This document shows, in pieces, positions 1 to 7,262 of a stretch of 64,000 nt of DNA; position 1 is the first letter of the stretch; each line of letters begins with the position of its first letter. The notes beneath the pieces were generated by a model. It was not told where the DNA came from and searched no databases. It worked only from the letters and a program-made list of their open reading frames with translations. The position numbers and the translations under genes were made by a program. The DNA comes from a virus: the IMG/VR virus record IMGVR_UViG_3300031758_000006; one strand, given 5' to 3'.

Positions 1-2642
1 TTTGTAACGTCCTCAACAACCCATCTAATTAGTACTGGGTCCCAATAAATTAAAATGTCAAAACCTGCACATCCAGATGGGCAATTTCCACCCGCTAGTG
101 TTGTTCCAGAATAAGATGGTCTACCATTTATCGGCGTGTTAGTTAAATAAAAATTACTACCGTAATTCACAGATACTCCACCACCAAGAGGACATTCCCC
201 AAAGAATCTAATACATTGTGGTGTTACCACCGGTTCTAATGGTGGTGTTATAATTACAGTTTTTGCTGGTTTTGGAGCTAAGTCTATTAATTCATATCCA
301 TCTGGACAAATACCACAAGTTGTTTTAACACCGTTATCTAGAACTACATTAGCTGAACTAGTTATGACATAATCATTAATTATTGGTAATCCATTTGTAT
401 TTGAGTTAAGGAAGTAATATGTTGGGTCGTTTGATACTGGATTTGGGTTACTATATATTTCATAAGCTAGGACGCCCTCTCCGGATCTATTAACCCCACA
501 GATTTTAATTGTGTTTATTTGACCACCAATTAATGTGATGGGATATACATTCCAAAATGTATAATTCAATGGTTGTGATGGATTTAAAGTTTGATCTAAT
601 ATCAATGTACCATTCAATGTTATTTTTGTAGCGTCTGAACAAACCCCAATAAAATATGTTTGTGTTTCTGGGACAAACAATGATTCACATCTACACAATT
701 CACCCTCATAGTTTAAATTATTTTCAGCCCATATACCAATATCCCAAGCTCTTCGTCTCCAAAATCTAAGTAATGGACTAACTTGTATCATAGGTTGAGT
801 ACCGGTACTGGAACAAACTTCCAAATCACTATAATTTTGATTACATTGTTGTGGTAATAAAGAGTATGTTGAGGTACATCCAAAATTAAACATAGTTGAT
901 GGTCCAGTTCCATCTAATAAAAATGTTGGTTGGAATACTGCCACACCCTCTTTACATAATAATGGGTTAAATGGTAAATTGTTATCACATAGTAAACTAC
1001 TATATAATTCTAAGTTTTGTGTTTGTCCGCTACCTGCTGGTACCGTTACCCCAGAATAACACAATCCATTTGGTAATGGTTGATACCCTGGAGGACAATC
1101 ACATCCTTCGGTTGGTATTTTTGTAGCGTGTACCTGGAAACTAATATTATATAGTGAACTTTGTGGACATGTCCAAATACCAGTGACTGGATCGTAAGTA
1201 TTCGCTGGGAATAGAGTTTCCCAATCATCATATTGTTGTGAAGTTATTACCGGTAATTGTATTGTACCATCAAAAATTGTTCCAGATGGTACACTTGGGA
1301 TAATAGCTGGTGTGTCGATTGATACAGCCTCACCCATAGCTGCTATTAAAAATATGTTGTTTGTATTTCCGGTAACAACGAAGTTATCTGAGTCTAAACC
1401 TAAGTTAGCAACATCTTGGTTGTTTGGAATATCAGTAATTCGTAATTTTGGTGTAAATACTGAATCGTCTGTGTTAATATTTGAACTGGATAATATCTGT
1501 CCTAAATCAGTTAATCCGTTTAATGATTGGGTGTTAATTAAGTCCCCACCAACAATTACTGATCTTTGTGAAGAGTTGTTTGGTATAACCGCATTAATTG
1601 ATATAACACTAGATCCATCGTTCCCGGATAAAATTTGATTTGTTGTACCAAGAATAGATGATAAGTTTGACCCAGCAAAGTTTGAAGCTCCACCAAGAAT
1701 AGTTGTAAAAGCTGAATCGGTAAAGTTTTTATCCCCACCAAATATTGTTGACCCATTTTGTGAAATACTGTTGTTGGTACCACCAAAAATTACAGATCCA
1801 CATGAATCACCACCAATTTGGTTGTTGGATCCTCCACCAATGTAGTTAACCGATCCTTTAGTAACGTTTTGACAACCACCGAGTAATGTATTTCTATTAA
1901 AGTATGATCTATTCTCAGTTCCACCACCAATTGACGACATTCCAGTTCCTAAACTGGTTAGGTTGGAAGCTCCACCTAGGATAACAGAACACGCGTTCTC
2001 AATTAAATTTGTTTGTCCACCTAGAATTGATGAACCCACACTATCAGTGATGATGTTTCCAGTTCCACCACCAATTGAGTTGTCACAAACTTTCTTACTT
2101 GCAATCAAGTTAATGTAATTGTCGGTACCACCCAGAACTACCGAGTAATTACCAATCAATTTATTTCCCCAACCACCAGCAATTGTTGATCCATCTGACA
2201 TATCACTAGTAGAGTTTATGTTACCGATTGTGTTTAAATCACCACCACCAATACTTGAAAATATACCTTGTACTTTGTTTTCTTTACCACCGATTATACT
2301 AGAACATGGTTTGTAAATTACATTTTTAAATCCTCCACCTATCGATGACCTATTTGTTTTAATACTTTGATTGTATGTGAATATTAAGTTACCGTATCCA
2401 CCAATAATTGATGATTGACATGAATTATCAATTTTATTAGACGAACCACCTACTATTGTTGATCCACAGGAATCCAATTTTGTGGTTGATGAGTCTGGTC
2501 CAACAATAGTGTTTAACCTACCACCGAACACAGTTGAATACTGTGATCCAGCTAAATTACCAAGAGCACATCTAACTGTTGATGTTTGTCCACCACCCAA
2601 AAACTGGTTGTCCTGAATTATAATTTCTGTTATTACTGCCAT
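1..2642 (-). CDS. Large virion adhesin/tail-fibre-like protein, >880 aa, runs off window start (not in ORF track)
   Basis: ATG at 2642 (MAVITEIIIQDNQFLGGGQ); frame open wherever I translated it down to base 3; many (I/V)xGGxxN repeats; C1q-like TYDPVTGIWTCPQSSLYNISF; PA14-like QTYFIGVCSDATKITLNGTLI; TATTTAT 18 nt upstream. Confidence 0.8.
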   Translation of the reverse strand, partial: MAVITEIIIQDNQFLGGGQTSTVRCALGNLAGSQYSTVFGGRLNTIVGPDSSTTKLDSCGSTIVGGSSNKIDNSCQSSIIGGYGNLIFTYNQSIKTNRSSIGGGFKNVIYKPCSSIIGGKENKVQGIFSSIGGGDLNTIGNINSTSDMSDGSTIAGGWGNKLIGNYSVVLGGTDNYINLIASKKVCDNSIGGGTGNIITDSVGSSILGGQTNLIENACSVILGGASNLTSLGTGMSSIGGGTENRSYFNRNTLLGGCQNVTKGSVNYIGGGSNNQIGGDSCGSVIFGGTNNSISQNGSTIFGGDKNFTDSAFTTILGGASNFAGSNLSSILGTTNQILSGNDGSSVISINAVIPNNSSQRSVIVGGDLINTQSLNGLTDLGQILSSSNINTDDSVFTPKLRITDIPNNQDVANLGLDSDNFVVTGNTNNIFLIAAMGEAVSIDTPAIIPSVPSGTIFDGTIQLPVITSQQYDDWETLFPANTYDPVTGIWTCPQSSLYNISFQVHATKIPTEGCDCPPGYQPLPNGLCYSGVTVPAGSGQTQNLELYSSLLCDNNLPFNPLLCKEGVAVFQPTFLLDGTGPSTMFNFGCTSTYSLLPQQCNQNYSDLEVCSSTGTQPMIQVSPLLRFWRRRAWDIGIWAENNLNYEGELCRCESLFVPETQTYFIGVCSDATKITLNGTLILDQTLNPSQPLNYTFWNVYPITLIGGQINTIKICGVNRSGEGVLAYEIYSNPNPVSNDPTYYFLNSNTNGLPIINDYVITSSANVVLDNGVKTTCGICPDGYELIDLAPKPAKTVIITPPLEPVVTPQCIRFFGECPLGGGVSVNYGSNFYLTNTPINGRPSYSGTTLAGGNCPSGCAGFDILIYWDPVLIRWVVEDVT

Positions 2643-2660
2643 AATGTATTTTCTTTTCAA

Positions 2661-2667
2661 ATAAATA
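2661..2667 (-). promoter_or_regulatory. TATTTAT putative late promoter
   Basis: Recurrent motif upstream of structural-type genes. Confidence 0.55.
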
Positions 2668-2687
2668 TTATGTAATTGGTAAAAAAT

Positions 2688-2721
2688 TAAAAACCCCCAC
2701 AAATAATGTGAGGGTTTTTTA
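2688..2721. terminator. Intrinsic terminator hairpin
   Basis: AAACCCCCAC-AAATAAT-GTGAGGGTTT with A/T runs on both sides. Confidence 0.65.
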
Positions 2722-2723
2722 TA

Positions 2724-2878
2724 TGTCGTTATTAAATTGGTTATATAGTATGAATGATTGTTAAATTTTGACTAAAAAACTTTTGAACTTCATGAATTTT
2801 GTACTTTGAGTGCCTAATCAATATCTAACCATCGATTAACAAGTTGTAGAATTTAATATAACCATTTAATTAACGACA
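2724..2878 (-). ncRNA. Candidate structured RNA downstream of DIP1984-like gene
   Basis: 23-nt imperfect inverted repeats (2724-2746/2856-2878), internal 8-bp stem with a G-U pair on the minus strand, recurring (T/A)CAAA units. Confidence 0.5.
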
Positions 2879-2881
2879 CAA

Positions 2882-3367
2882 TTACTCGTTAGTTTTATCT
2901 TCATCAGTTTCTGATGGTTCGAGTCCAGGTAAAGTTGTTGTTGAATTATGTTGATCCAATTCATCTTGTATTTCATCAATTCTTGCTTCAAGAAATTTAA
3001 TTTCTGAGTCCCTTTCAACTACAGAAATTTCAGATTTTTTAATCGTCGGTGAATCTGAACGTCTTCCGTAGTAGTCATCCTCTGATACACCATCAGTACA
3101 GTCCACCCCTTTTAAGTGTTTAACAATACTCTTTAATTCGGACAATAAAAATATTTTATCGTATACCTCTGAATTAGCTTTGTGGATTTCAGTTTTTAAA
3201 GCTACCAACTGGTTTACTAAATTATACTGTTGTTCCAAAAGAGCTTTGGTTGAGTACGGTCTTTGATTTGACTCAGATACGGAATTGTATCTCATCATTT
3301 TAATTTGTGTGTCGGTAATCTCACCAACCAATCGATTTTTAAGTTTTAAAGCTTGTTTAATTGTCAT
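2882..3367 (-). CDS. Coiled-coil protein, DIP1984/DUF6847-like
   Basis: N-terminus MTIKQALKLKNRL resembles the MKLAEAL..R signature; helical heptads. Confidence 0.5.
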   Translation of the reverse strand: MTIKQALKLKNRLVGEITDTQIKMMRYNSVSESNQRPYSTKALLEQQYNLVNQLVALKTEIHKANSEVYDKIFLLSELKSIVKHLKGVDCTDGVSEDDYYGRRSDSPTIKKSEISVVERDSEIKFLEARIDEIQDELDQHNSTTTLPGLEPSETDEDKTNE

Positions 3368-3396
3368 GATTTTAATTTTATTAAATTATATAAATT

Positions 3397-3903
3397 TTAT
3401 TTTAATATGTCAATACCTTTTTTCAATTTTTTATAATCTTCTTTTGATATTTCCACTAAATTAATGTTGGCTTCCAAATAAGAAGTCTCCGGATTCGTAA
3501 ATACTTCAAACTTTTGGTGTTTTTTTAATTTTGTATTTTCAGATCTTGTTACAAAATTGTATTTACCACAATTATTTAAATAAAAGTCAACCAGGTCAAG
3601 TTCACCACTTTCAATTTTATCTATATTGTTCAGTAGATGTGTCGCGGCAATCTTTCTTGGGTACTCATGTTCTTTTGTTGGTGAGTAACTTTTATTTAAT
3701 CTAATTTGGTTTAGACATTCTTCGGATATTTTTCCGGTCCAATTCTCGATTGAATCGGGTAAGTAGAATATTCCAGCCCCAAACATGGTTTCCATAAATT
3801 TCTTTTGGTCGTCACTGACGTTTGGGTCTGGGTATAATTCTTTTAATGATACTAACATTCTACGTAAAACTTCGCACCGGTCTTTTAGTTTACTGATGTT
3901 CAT
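3397..3903 (-). CDS. Hypothetical protein, possible His-Me-finger (HNH-like) nuclease
   Basis: TKEHEYPRK ... FVTRSENTKL spacing resembles EHxxP...VTxxEN. Confidence 0.4.
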   Translation of the reverse strand: MNISKLKDRCEVLRRMLVSLKELYPDPNVSDDQKKFMETMFGAGIFYLPDSIENWTGKISEECLNQIRLNKSYSPTKEHEYPRKIAATHLLNNIDKIESGELDLVDFYLNNCGKYNFVTRSENTKLKKHQKFEVFTNPETSYLEANINLVEISKEDYKKLKKGIDILK

Positions 3904-4034
3904 TGTTTAATTTCCGTTTTCGTGGTGTCATTATGAACTGGGGTGACACTTCCATAAGCGTCACACCCAGATTCTTTTTTTGATTTACATGAACCAAGTA
4001 ATAAACAAACAATTGCAAATACTACTACTCTCAT
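3900..4034 (-). CDS. 44-aa predicted lipoprotein (not in ORF track)
   Basis: [28 protein letters not shown]...; lipobox LGS-C; TAATG overlap with dnaK and ATGA overlap with next gene. Confidence 0.7.
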   Translation of the reverse strand: MRVVVFAIVCLLLGSCKSKKESGCDAYGSVTPVHNDTTKTEIKQ

Positions 4035-5887
4035 TACTTAACCTCCTCAAATTCAACGTCAGACATGTTATCGACATTGTCGGAGTTTGGTTGTTCATAA
4101 AGGTTTTGACTAACTTCCTGGAACTTAGAATTTAATTCATCCAAACCAGATTTCATTAGATCAAAATCACGTTTACTTTGAGAATCTTTTAAATTTTCCA
4201 GCAGTGTGTTCAACTCAGTTTTTTGGTCCTCAGAAATTTTGTCTTCCAAATCTTTAATTGATTTCTCACTCTGGAATATAGTTGAGTCTACTGTGTTAAT
4301 TAACTCAGCCTCTTCTCTCAACTTTCTATCCTCATCCGCGTTCATTTCAGCTTCTTGTTTCATTCTCTCAATTTCTTCTTTCGATAAACCGGAGGATGAT
4401 TCGATTCTGATTGTTTGTTGTTTATTGGTTCCCTTATCCAAAGCTGATACATTAATAATACCATTAGCGTCAATATCAAACGTTACCTCAATTTGTGGGA
4501 CACCACGAGGTGATGGTGGAATACCATCCAGGTGGAATCGTCCAATTGTTTTATTATCCTTAGCCATTGATCTCTCACCCTGTAACACATGTATCTCGAC
4601 TGATGGTTGGTTTTCAACTGCGGTTGAGAATGTTTGTGATTTTTTGGTCGGTATTGTTGTGTTGGCTTCGATTAGTTTGGTGAACACTCCACCCATTGTT
4701 TCAATACCTAATGAAAGTGGTGTTACATCTAATAATAAAACATCGTTTACATCACCAGCTAAAACACCTCCCTGGATTGCGGCACCCAAAGCTACAACCT
4801 CATCTGGGTTAACACCTTTGGATGGTTCTTTACCGAAGAAGTTCTTAACAGCTTCCTGGATTACCGGAATTCTTGTTGTACCACCAACCAGGATAATCTC
4901 ATCGATATCTGATACAGACATCTTAGCGTTTTTCAAAGCTGACTTACACGGATCGATTGTTCGTTTAACCAATGAGTCAACTAGTTGTTCAAATTTAGAT
5001 CTTGTTAGAGTCCTAACTAAGTGTTTTGGGACACCGTCAACTGGCATAATATATGGTAAGTTAATCTCCGTTGAGGATGAGGACGATAACTCAATTTTAG
5101 CTTTCTCAGCTGATTCTCTAAGTCTTTGTAAAGCCATAGGATCTTTAGCTAAATCAATACCGTTTTCATCTTTAAATTCAGATACCAACCAGTCAATGAT
5201 GGATTGGTCAAAGTCATCCCCACCAAGGTGTGTATCACCGTCTGTTGAAAGTACTTCAAACACTCCGTCACCTAATTCTAGAATTGATACATCGTGTGTT
5301 CCACCACCACAGTCAAAGACAACAACTACCATGTCTGACTTCTTTTTATCTAGACCATAAGCTAAAGCAGCTGCGGTTGGTTCGTTTATAATTCTTTTAA
5401 CCTCAAGACCAGCGATCTCACCAGCTTCTTTCGTTGCTTGACGTTGTGAGTCATTAAAGTAAGCTGGTACCGTAATTACAGCTTCAGTTACAGTTTCACC
5501 TAAGTAATCCTCAGCGGTTTGTTTCATCTTTTGTAGAATAACCGCAGATAATTCTTGTGGTGTATACATTTTACCATCAATTTCAACTCTAGGTGTGTTA
5601 TTGTCACCTTTAACTACTTTGTATGGTACTTTACCCAACTCGGACTTTGAGTCTGAGTAACTTAATCCCATAAATCTCTTGATTGAGTAAATTGTTTTAT
5701 CTGGATTAGTGACCGCTTGTCGTTTAGCTGGATCACCTACTTTACGTTCCCCATCTTTCACGAATCCAATCACCGAAGGTGTTGTTCGTTTTCCTTCATT
5801 ATTTGTGATCACGACTGGTTCATTACCTTCCATAATCGCGACACATGAGTTTGTTGTTCCTAGGTCAATACCTATAATTTTTCCCAT
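4034..5887 (-). CDS. dnaK: Hsp70 chaperone DnaK
   Basis: [37 protein letters not shown]-like [10 protein letters not shown]; C-terminus VEFEEVK. Confidence 0.97.
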
Positions 5888-5939
5888 TGTTTTTTTTTAT
5901 TGTTATTTATTTATGATCTAAAAGATCGATTTATTTTTC

Positions 5940-5980
5940 CCAAAAAATATTCCAGATGAAATTATCTGACATTTTGTCAG
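5940..5980 (-). promoter_or_regulatory. Possible sigma54-like -24/-12 box plus upstream palindrome before dnaK
   Basis: Minus strand CTGAC-AAAAT-GTCAG followed by TGGAATATTTTTTGG (GG and TTG at sigma54 spacing). Confidence 0.35.
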
Positions 5981-5981
5981 T

Positions 5982-6278
5982 TTACCAAGTACTAACGTCA
6001 GTTAAATCTAACTCTACCTTAGCTAATTCACTATAAACTATGACAATTGGTCCTATACCGCTACTTGTAAATCGATATTCATAATCACCATACTCCCCGT
6101 AAACGGCTTTTATATGTCCTTGCCACTTTTTCAATTTTTTAACCTGGTCTGGATCTATTGTAAATGACATTGGTTTATATTTGTTTTCAATGTCATCCTT
6201 TTTATCAGATTTTTCTTTTTTATTTTTTTTTGACATTTCCAAGATTCTTGATTTTAAATTTATAATTTTACTTTTCAT
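5982..6278 (-). CDS. Hypothetical protein
   Basis: ORF in operon orientation; start may be the later MSKKN. Confidence 0.7.
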   Translation of the reverse strand: MKSKIINLKSRILEMSKKNKKEKSDKKDDIENKYKPMSFTIDPDQVKKLKKWQGHIKAVYGEYGDYEYRFTSSGIGPIVIVYSELAKVELDLTDVSTW

Positions 6279-6304
6279 AACATTATAAGTTTACGTATTT
6301 TTTT

Positions 6305-6853
6305 TTAAAGTTTCAATACTTTAACCGACCACGGGTCAAAAAAATTATCAACTTCACAAGTTTTAATTTCATTGTGTAGAGCGTCGTAGTAATAATCACC
6401 ATTCAATATAGGTGTTTTTTCCATAATAAAGTATTTACGTCCATTGAAGTTGACTAATGAGGTCTCTTCTCTGTGTTCATCACATAGACAATATATCCAA
6501 CCACCGATTTTATGTTGTACTCCCGGTTCACCACAAACTTCACAAACATTAAAACTTTCTTTTTCAGCTTCAACAACAAAATGAAATCCATTTTCTGGTA
6601 AATTATCTAAGAATATACTCATTCCACCAAACTTTTGTTTTACATTTAAAAATTGTTTATCCCAACCCATTGATATTAAAGTCTCAAACAATCTTTGTAA
6701 AATACCTAACCAACCATTACTGACGGAAAAATTGTGTCGTTCTAAAATGGGTGATTTATGTTTATGAAATCCGTGATTAAGTCCACCAATATTTTTTAAA
6801 AAATTATTAAATTCTTTATCGGATAAATAATTATTGTTCATTCTTACTCCCAT
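6305..6853 (-). CDS. Conserved hypothetical protein with C-terminal Zn-finger-like motif
   Basis: VKQKFGG motif; CEVCG...CDEH. Confidence 0.65.
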   Translation of the reverse strand: MGVRMNNNYLSDKEFNNFLKNIGGLNHGFHKHKSPILERHNFSVSNGWLGILQRLFETLISMGWDKQFLNVKQKFGGMSIFLDNLPENGFHFVVEAEKESFNVCEVCGEPGVQHKIGGWIYCLCDEHREETSLVNFNGRKYFIMEKTPILNGDYYYDALHNEIKTCEVDNFFDPWSVKVLKL

Positions 6854-7262
6854 CTTTATTGTACATTTTTAACATGGTTAACGAATTTCTTAATATCCAA
6901 TATGAGTCCCAGAATCCACCTCTATCATCCAGGAAGATGTTAGCGTACAATTTCCCATTTAACCCATATGGTTTGTCCCATTCTGAGTGCATTTGGTTGA
7001 CACCATGAACAACAATTCCAAGATCCTCCACTTGTTTTTTAGCGTTCACCAATTGTTTTTCACTTCTAGCGGTATTAATTAAAAATACTATACCATGTTC
7101 TTGACATTCCAAAATTAAATCAACCATTTTTTTACAGTTCTCTTTAATTTCTTCGTTGTAAGGGATAATAGTATCGTCAAGGTCACAAGCTATGATGATT
7201 TTCCCATTTTTAACCCATTCATTTGTTAATCGATTCGTATAAAAATTAGCGTGGTGTCTCAT
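6831..7262 (-). CDS. HAD-superfamily phosphatase (BT0820-like)
   Basis: IIACDLDDTI (DxDxT) and KLYANIFLDDR. Confidence 0.75.
   Translation of the reverse strand: MRHHANFYTNRLTNEWVKNGKIIIACDLDDTIIPYNEEIKENCKKMVDLILECQEHGIVFLINTARSEKQLVNAKKQVEDLGIVVHGVNQMHSEWDKPYGLNGKLYANIFLDDRGGFWDSYWILRNSLTMLKMYNKDGSKNEQ

Follow-up and report, generated by a model that had tools for sequence, protein, structure and literature searches.

A DIP1984-fold protein gene and an adjoining heptad-repeat RNA: a candidate protein-RNA particle of giant phages with sporadic bacterial occurrence

We found that a gene encoding a 161-amino-acid protein of the DIP1984/DUF6847 fold (2882..3367, minus strand) in the window, i.e. 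the 64,000-nucleotide stretch of the viral record IMGVR_UViG_3300031758_000006 analysed here, is directly followed by a stem-closed RNA of about 160 bases whose interior presents short units in a 7-nt register. The gene product and this RNA are probably the two halves of an undescribed protein-RNA particle, a reading drawn from sequence comparison because the pair recurs in every relative examined and no catalogued RNA family matches the RNA.

The parent IMG/VR viral record is 83.7 kb in length and, since this is estimated to be only 29% complete, the window, which is part of it, is taken to derive from a giant phage. The local genes are encoded on the minus strand, as is the gene-RNA element, and the RNA is flanked by the 161-amino-acid ORF (3367-2882) on one side and by a long, repeat-rich ORF with its start at 2642 on the other. 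The promoter (3385..3413, minus strand) is composed of TTGACA (3413-3408), a 17-nt spacer and TATAAT (3390-3385); it is identical to the sigma-70 consensus at 12 of 12 positions and ends 18 nt ahead of the ATG. In most related loci, a TTGAC-type -35 and a TATAAT-like -10 element occur in this order 45–55 nt ahead of the start codon. At the other end of the element, where a separate terminator had been proposed at 2688-2721, the terminator scan indeed located an intrinsic terminator at 2719-2689 (2689..2719, minus strand; a 13-pair G+C-rich stem and a T run), beginning 2 nt past the closing stem of the RNA. A similar terminator stands behind the RNA in most related loci and is absent in some clades. 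With promoter, inverted repeat, repeat units and terminator in place, the unit consists of promoter, gene, RNA and terminator, and would represent a single self-contained transcription unit, in which one transcript carries both the message for a small helical protein with the DIP1984/DUF6847 fold and the partner RNA of that protein.

The surroundings of the pair in the window include a full-length, phage-encoded dnaK/Hsp70 homologue of 617 amino acids (4034-5887, minus strand), which is followed by a 44-amino-acid ORF (3900-4034, minus strand) with a lipoprotein-like signal (LLGSC) and by a 168-amino-acid ORF without a family (3397-3903). The ORF on the other side of the RNA (3-2642, minus strand) is longer than 880 amino acids, extends beyond the window edge and contains many glycine-rich short repeats of the GG.xN type, with a tail-fibre-like appearance; homologues of this ORF (29–35% identity) were found 1–1.5 kb farther downstream of the RNA in loci L004, L009 and L015. 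A 143-amino-acid ORF (6831-7262, minus strand) matches phrog_1238, annotated as phosphoheptose isomerase (E 1.6e-19), and ORFs of this type are the best-conserved neighbours (75–80% identity) in the related clade L004–L012.

The AlphaFold2 model of the window protein (pLDDT 85.8) comprises three long helices and a small beta hairpin, and an acidic disordered tail extends from residue 147. The best structural match of the model in Foldseek was 3KDQ (TM 0.71–0.78), and VIA-align against the same structure yielded a Z score of 12.8 and an rmsd of 2.4 Å over 141 of 152 residues, the next match having a Z score of 9.3. 3KDQ is an unannotated Corynebacterium diphtheriae structure of the DIP1984 family, solved since 2009. 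By sequence, the window protein scored below the cut-off of the DIP1984 HMM NF038048 (E 1.3e-3; 18.9 bits against a cut-off of 70 bits), and no match was obtained in Pfam at E <= 0.01, in PHROGs, in PADLOC or in a sequence search of the PDB. Its relatives at approximately 55–60% identity reached 27.7–29.4 bits on PF20935 (threshold 27 bits), so that family membership is assigned through a chain of homology and not by the protein's own score. The description of the gene as DIP1984-like in the original prediction thus holds for the fold of the model, as judged from 3KDQ, but not at the level of the family HMM cut-offs, under which the window protein falls.

Homologues of the window protein form 381 protein clusters, and Deinococcus radiodurans also has a member of the DIP1984/DUF6847 family. 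The family is well conserved (mean column identity of 63%), with four invariant polar residues (K58, H62, N65 and Y69) whose spacing fits one face of helix 2 of the model. A singleton of 496 amino acids, considered as a possible fused or longer form, is probably a gene-calling artefact. The protein core is mildly acidic (pI ~5.4–6.2), which is unusual for a general RNA binder, and the fold comparison returned no known RNA-binding relative; both points count against an RNA-binding role. A full-text literature search retrieved no paper on the function of the DIP1984/DUF6847 family.

Both arms of the inverted repeat on which the RNA had been predicted were recovered at their claimed positions, 2724-2746 and 2856-2878 (23 nt, 87% complementary, with 109 nt between them). 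The arm is unique within the window, and 100 shuffles produced no match. Together with flanking pairs, the arms form a closing stem, P1, of 24 pairs in total (2880-2856 with 2746-2722; 5′ arm 2856..2880 and 3′ arm 2722..2746, both on the minus strand), for which inverted repeat, fold and covariation all provide evidence. With the two outer pairs included the helix begins 1 nt past the stop codon, and not 4 nt after it as first described. The RNA fold of 2680-2885 on the minus strand has an energy of -52.4 kcal/mol (z = -6.8), equalled by none of 200 shuffles.

The closing stem is 15–29 bp long in the relatives, where its sequence is clade-specific and its pairing is kept. Stem sequences as unrelated as UGUGUCGUUAAUUAAAUGG in the window, GGUGGAACGUUAGUGAAUC in L006 and CUUGUUGUUGACUAACAAAU in L066 are each paired with their own counterpart arm. 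Among the close relatives (81–89% protein identity), 94% of the P1 cells are paired and five pairs have changed on both sides, including changes from C-G to U-A and from G-C to A-U; compensatory changes in P1 were also seen across a 15-sequence set. In 49 distinct sequences, whose alignment, like the others used for P1 covariation, was fitted to the model and is therefore biased towards the structure, 84.3% of the P1 cells were paired, compared with 50.6% in shuffled and 36–42% in slid-partner controls. All 24 pairs showed two-sided changes in this set (279 cells against 96 expected). Folds of the individual sequences, which are independent of MAFFT, agree with the P1 pairing. On neither the MAFFT alignment (A2) nor the model alignment (A8) did RNAalifold predict any pairs, since the stem arms vary and fall out of register between clades.

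The interior of the RNA begins with a 5′ joining region containing the motif CUACAA (2844..2849, minus strand), which both alignments, A2 and A8, show as conserved. Next comes a local hairpin (2815..2838, minus strand) with an 8-bp stem and an 8-nt loop (TAATCGAT-GGTTAGAT-ATTGATTA), the G-U pair of which exists on the minus strand only. Three GAU triplets lie within this hairpin (2833-2831, 2825-2823 and 2819-2817), spaced by 6–9 nt and preceding the heptads, and the letters GAU...GAU...UGAU are conserved family-wide in both alignments. The inner 8-bp stem of the original prediction is present in the window and kept in four of the five close relatives, with a series of A-U, G-U and G-C at one of its pairs, but across the family it finds no support (54% paired against 53% in shuffled columns).

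The CAAA-type units that had been noticed behind the gene were confirmed as a heptad array at 2756..2810 on the minus strand, which reads CUCAAAG UACAAAA UUCAUGAAG UUCAAAAG UUUUUUAG UCAAAAU UUAACAA UC (in DNA letters from 2810 to 2756, CTCAAAG TACAAAA TTCATGAAG TTCAAAAG ... TCAAAAT TTAACAA). The window array comprises seven units, including two degenerate ones; it contains little G, and most of it is predicted to be unpaired. A typical member, L066, also displays seven heptads (CUCAAAG UUCAACU AUCAAAAGUA UUCAAAG UUCAACC AUUAAAC UUUAAAA). Over 48 phage RNAs, gaps of 7 nt between YAA units were counted 132 times against 15.7 expected, with echoes at 14–15 nt. The heptad region is 81–95% identical among close relatives, compared with 58–77% at the four-fold degenerate sites of the gene, and it was the more conserved of the two in all 10 close-relative pairs. 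An all-against-all column scan of A8 detected covariation nowhere but in P1, and the long-range interior pairing of the minimum-energy fold of the window RNA is lost even in close relatives.

The RNA core contains only 8% G, and this depletion is specific to the sense strand. Pairs of the G.U type outnumber A.C in the P1 columns (59 against 9), and this excess, together with the low G content of the interior on the gene strand, indicates that the folded molecule is the gene-sense RNA. Folding energy does not tell the strands apart, the antisense strand folding as well or better in 36 of 51 cases.

Some clades carry additional elements within the RNA. An extra short hairpin between the 5′ arm and CUACAA, about 30–60 nt past the stop codon and of clade-variable but still paired sequence, was found in the clades of L016, L045, L052, L069, L210 and L216; the window RNA does not have it. 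Locus L055 (3439-3700) contains an insertion of about 100 nt behind the 5′ stem arm, with tandem TTTTACATTGTGA repeats, and was missed by the covariance model R2.

At least 136 loci emerged from a profile search of IMG/VR, and 80 of them were retained. The stem-plus-heptad RNA was detected behind the gene in all 80 of these distinct loci and in the six metagenome contigs inspected (6/6), starting 1–11 nt past the stop codon or past a small CxxC ORF. The approximately 200–260 nt behind the gene share a common plan, with an outer stem, CUACAA, GAU..GAU..UGAU and a G-poor UCAA-type tract that terminates in UUAAAACUC; the return arm comes next and usually a terminator. Downstream structure and CAAA repeats, the two features on which the prediction had been staked, were hence both present at every homologous locus inspected. 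Covariance models were built from five close relatives and then from 15 sequences (R2). The latter matched 50 of 58 loci, each of them once, immediately behind the gene and on its strand, and gave one match in the 83.7-kb phage record itself. A pattern scan of IMG/VR that was blind to the protein, combined with an nhmmer screen, listed 80 loci, comprising 16 true copies of the RNA and 64 chance matches, and the gene was present in all 15 true copies with sufficient upstream sequence.

The flanking genes vary: dnaK adjoins the pair upstream only in the window's clade, and the next downstream gene belongs to at least 16 unrelated families, which marks the gene and the RNA as a conserved, co-inherited unit. 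A tblastn search for cultured phages retrieved only two uncultured huge phages (LR756511 and LR756500), and the phage T5 record AY543070 gave no sequence match to either PF20935 or the A1 profile. The gene-RNA pair is common in uncultivated giant freshwater phages.

In one clade (L020, L025, L030, L034, L036–L040 and L042), an ORF of about 62 amino acids with two CxxC pairs, zinc-ribbon-like, sits between the DIP1984-like gene and the RNA (~3436-3650). This ORF overlaps the stop of the gene (TAATG) and its own stop is the beginning of the closing stem, the RNA remaining at the end of the unit. The 75 nt ahead of the gene in L059 (~353-427) and L083 (~2926-3000) end in a tRNA-T-arm-like sequence (GGTTCGAATCC...), so that a tRNA gene is the probable immediate upstream neighbour in both clades.

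With each prokaryote species represented by one genome, a scan yielded 29 loci, in Bacteroidota metagenome-assembled genomes (MAGs), the isolate Arcicella aurantiaca DSM 22214, Planctomycetota, Armatimonadota and Chlorobiota, i.e. in four phyla with genomes of 25–73% G+C. The gene is rare in bacteria (one of 401 sampled Bacteroidota genomes). The RNA was found behind the gene in nearly all readable bacterial loci; even at 59–73% G+C, its closing stem remains long and CAAG/UAAG units keep to the 7-nt register, as exemplified by the array of a Fimbriimonas MAG (UUUAAG CUUAAGA UCCAAGC CGUAAAG GUUAAGC CGCAAGC). Lag 7 was observed 54 times in the bacterial loci against 9.9 expected, and R2 matched nine of these loci, each at the expected place. 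The cultured strain A. aurantiaca DSM 22214 carries the gene-RNA pair (L214); here (4684-6426 of the locus) the pair precedes a type I restriction R-subunit gene (ResIII, HSDR_N) by approximately 1.2 kb, a defence-island-like setting. A second, weak R2 match in Arcicella (E 0.27) has no homologous gene alongside and was discarded as a chance match.

The Rfam check gave no named family for the window region or for nine diverse member loci. In Rfam 15, the best score within window positions 2400-3500 was 22 bits against a gathering threshold of 55, with all E values >= 0.25 and no match on the whole element, and the nine loci gave nothing on the element at E <= 0.1. No match to Y RNA, YrlA, 6S RNA or RAGATH was obtained in Rfam.

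Several known systems resemble the pair in part. TRAP is an all-beta 11-mer ring that wraps single-stranded RNA carrying many evenly spaced GAG/UAG triplets; in the Bacillus trp leader RNA these triplets are 2–3 nt apart, lie in a 5′ leader and serve attenuator control, and the RNA between them is not conserved. The likeness to TRAP drawn earlier survives as an analogy of principle only, that of an oligomer reading short repeats spaced along single-stranded RNA, but does not extend to the fold: the window protein is modelled as a helical bundle, not as the all-beta fold of the MtrB type, and has no Pfam hit. The Ro60/Y RNA system shares the overall architecture, as a large loop in Y RNAs is closed by a long stem formed from their 5′ and 3′ ends, and the genes for RNA and protein are neighbours; unlike Ro60, however, the protein described here has no TROVE domain, and a heptad array is absent from Y RNAs. 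Type III toxin-antitoxin loci such as ToxIN likewise combine a protein gene with a repeat-bearing non-coding RNA, but in these the tandem repeats are of ~34–36 nt and lie upstream of an endoribonuclease toxin gene. This second comparison of the original prediction did not stand, as the units here are of 7 nt, the RNA lies downstream and within a closing stem, and the protein is all-helical; a repeat search of the window found no tandem repeats of ~34–36 nt, and PADLOC and Pfam were negative for ToxIN, CptIN and TenpIN. The DIP1984/DUF6847 family itself (PF20935, NF038048 and 3KDQ) shares the fold, and no partner RNA has been described for it.

The closest working analogy is provided by the Bacillus subtilis hut terminator RNA, in which hexameric HutP recognises UAGNNNNUAGNNNNUAG immediately 3′ of its own gene; UAG-N4 repeats with a 7-nt period, one unit per subunit, are followed there by a terminator (PMC2425495). 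Both systems thus place units of 7-nt period directly downstream of the protein's own gene and ahead of a terminator. They differ in that the two proteins have unrelated folds (no HutP-family match was obtained for the window protein in Pfam, and its only clear structural match is 3KDQ) and in that the hut unit is UAG, whereas three GAU and about seven YAA are found here. Moreover, the hut sites flank and invade the terminator stem, whereas the array described here lies within a long closing stem, is separated from the terminator by the 3′ arm of P1, and precedes downstream genes that are not conserved.

On the comparative evidence of co-occurrence, covariation and varying neighbours, the protein-ncRNA module suggested at the outset is supported, its original interpretation as a whole in part, and we infer the following course for binding, stoichiometry and RNA processing. 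Once the ribosome has departed from the stop codon, the 25 nt at either end of the RNA would pair as the 24-bp P1, enclosing a loop of about 110 nt that would remain single-stranded because it is depleted in G. The loop would then present its short units in a 7-nt register, three GAU and then about seven YAA, on which several copies of the protein, one per unit, could assemble side by side, the outcome being a particle of fixed size. P1 would delimit the array and shield its ends, and its length would suffice for an RNase III processing stem that releases the particle from the mRNA. As the RNA is made in cis, such assembly would couple the level of the protein to its own transcript. We lean, with some reserve, towards the central step of this scheme, namely binding of the heptad array by the protein in oligomeric form, for which HutP and TRAP serve as analogy; against it, the linkage of gene and RNA would also be expected if the RNA merely needed the gene's promoter or its translation in cis. 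More tentatively, the pair could represent a new and widespread class of sequence-programmed ribonucleoprotein, in which some 7–10 DIP1984-fold protomers polymerise on the array, one per heptad, and the closing stem fixes the length of the assembly. Such an assembly would be akin to viral nucleocapsid proteins, each of which covers a fixed number of bases, and the particle would occur in many giant phages and sporadically in bacteria of several phyla, the pattern expected of a module engaged in phage-host conflict or in the takeover of a host process.

Other explanations were weighed against this one. The RNA might share only the gene's promoter and act as a decoy or regulator on a host or phage factor, for example as a sponge for a YAA-reading protein. 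A stem-closed, single-stranded array of multiple sites does resemble sponge RNAs, of which CsrB and CrcZ are known examples, and the protein is acidic and has no known RNA-binding fold. Nevertheless, the RNA was never found without the gene, the adjacent protein is its only constant partner, and a host target common to Bacteroidota, Planctomycetota and the many phage clades in which the pair is kept is hard to envisage; we regard a decoy as unlikely. Another view would make the RNA a cis-acting element of the 3′ untranslated region, either an RNase III or stability stem or an autorepression site, with no particle acting in trans. Its position between the stop codon and the terminator would suit this, as would a P1 that starts 1 nt past the stop codon and exceeds 20 bp, since stems of more than 20 bp suit RNase III. 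A stability stem, however, would require neither an interior of 110 nt conserved beyond the level of synonymous sites nor a 7-nt repeat that persists from phylum to phylum, which leaves this view quite improbable; autoregulation by the protein is a version of the main explanation and no true rival.

Antitermination in the manner of HutP, with the protein on its repeats letting polymerase read through the terminator into downstream genes, draws on the match to the hut operon in layout, i.e. regulator gene, repeats of 7-nt period, terminator and further genes (PMC2425495). It appears very unlikely for the pair described here, given that the repeats are inside P1 and do not overlap the terminator stem, that no competing pairing of the P1 3′ arm with the terminator was apparent on inspection of the sequence, that the genes downstream come from at least 16 unrelated families and that some clades have no terminator behind the RNA at all. 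Finally, inverted and short direct repeats are typical of replication origins too, and the finding that in 36 of 51 cases the antisense strand equals or surpasses the sense strand in folding energy would be in keeping with an element acting as DNA, be it an origin, a site of recombination or a series of protein-binding sites. The predominance of G.U over A.C in P1 (59 against 9) and the sense-strand-specific loss of G speak for RNA instead, the element is always oriented with the gene and placed between its stop codon and the terminator, and repeats every 7 bp do not keep phase with the DNA helix, so that a DNA-level element is the most improbable of the explanations considered.

If the particle reading is true, the RNA would constitute a structured RNA family new to Rfam, and its partnership with the protein would provide the first functional clue for the domain of unknown function represented by structure 3KDQ. 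The 7-nt register leads to a simple hypothesis, that of one protomer per unit, and cultured organisms offer entry points to it, A. aurantiaca DSM 22214 with the pair and D. radiodurans with a family member. The spread of the pair through phages, with sporadic occurrence in bacteria, would suggest an undescribed molecular machine that moves between genomes.
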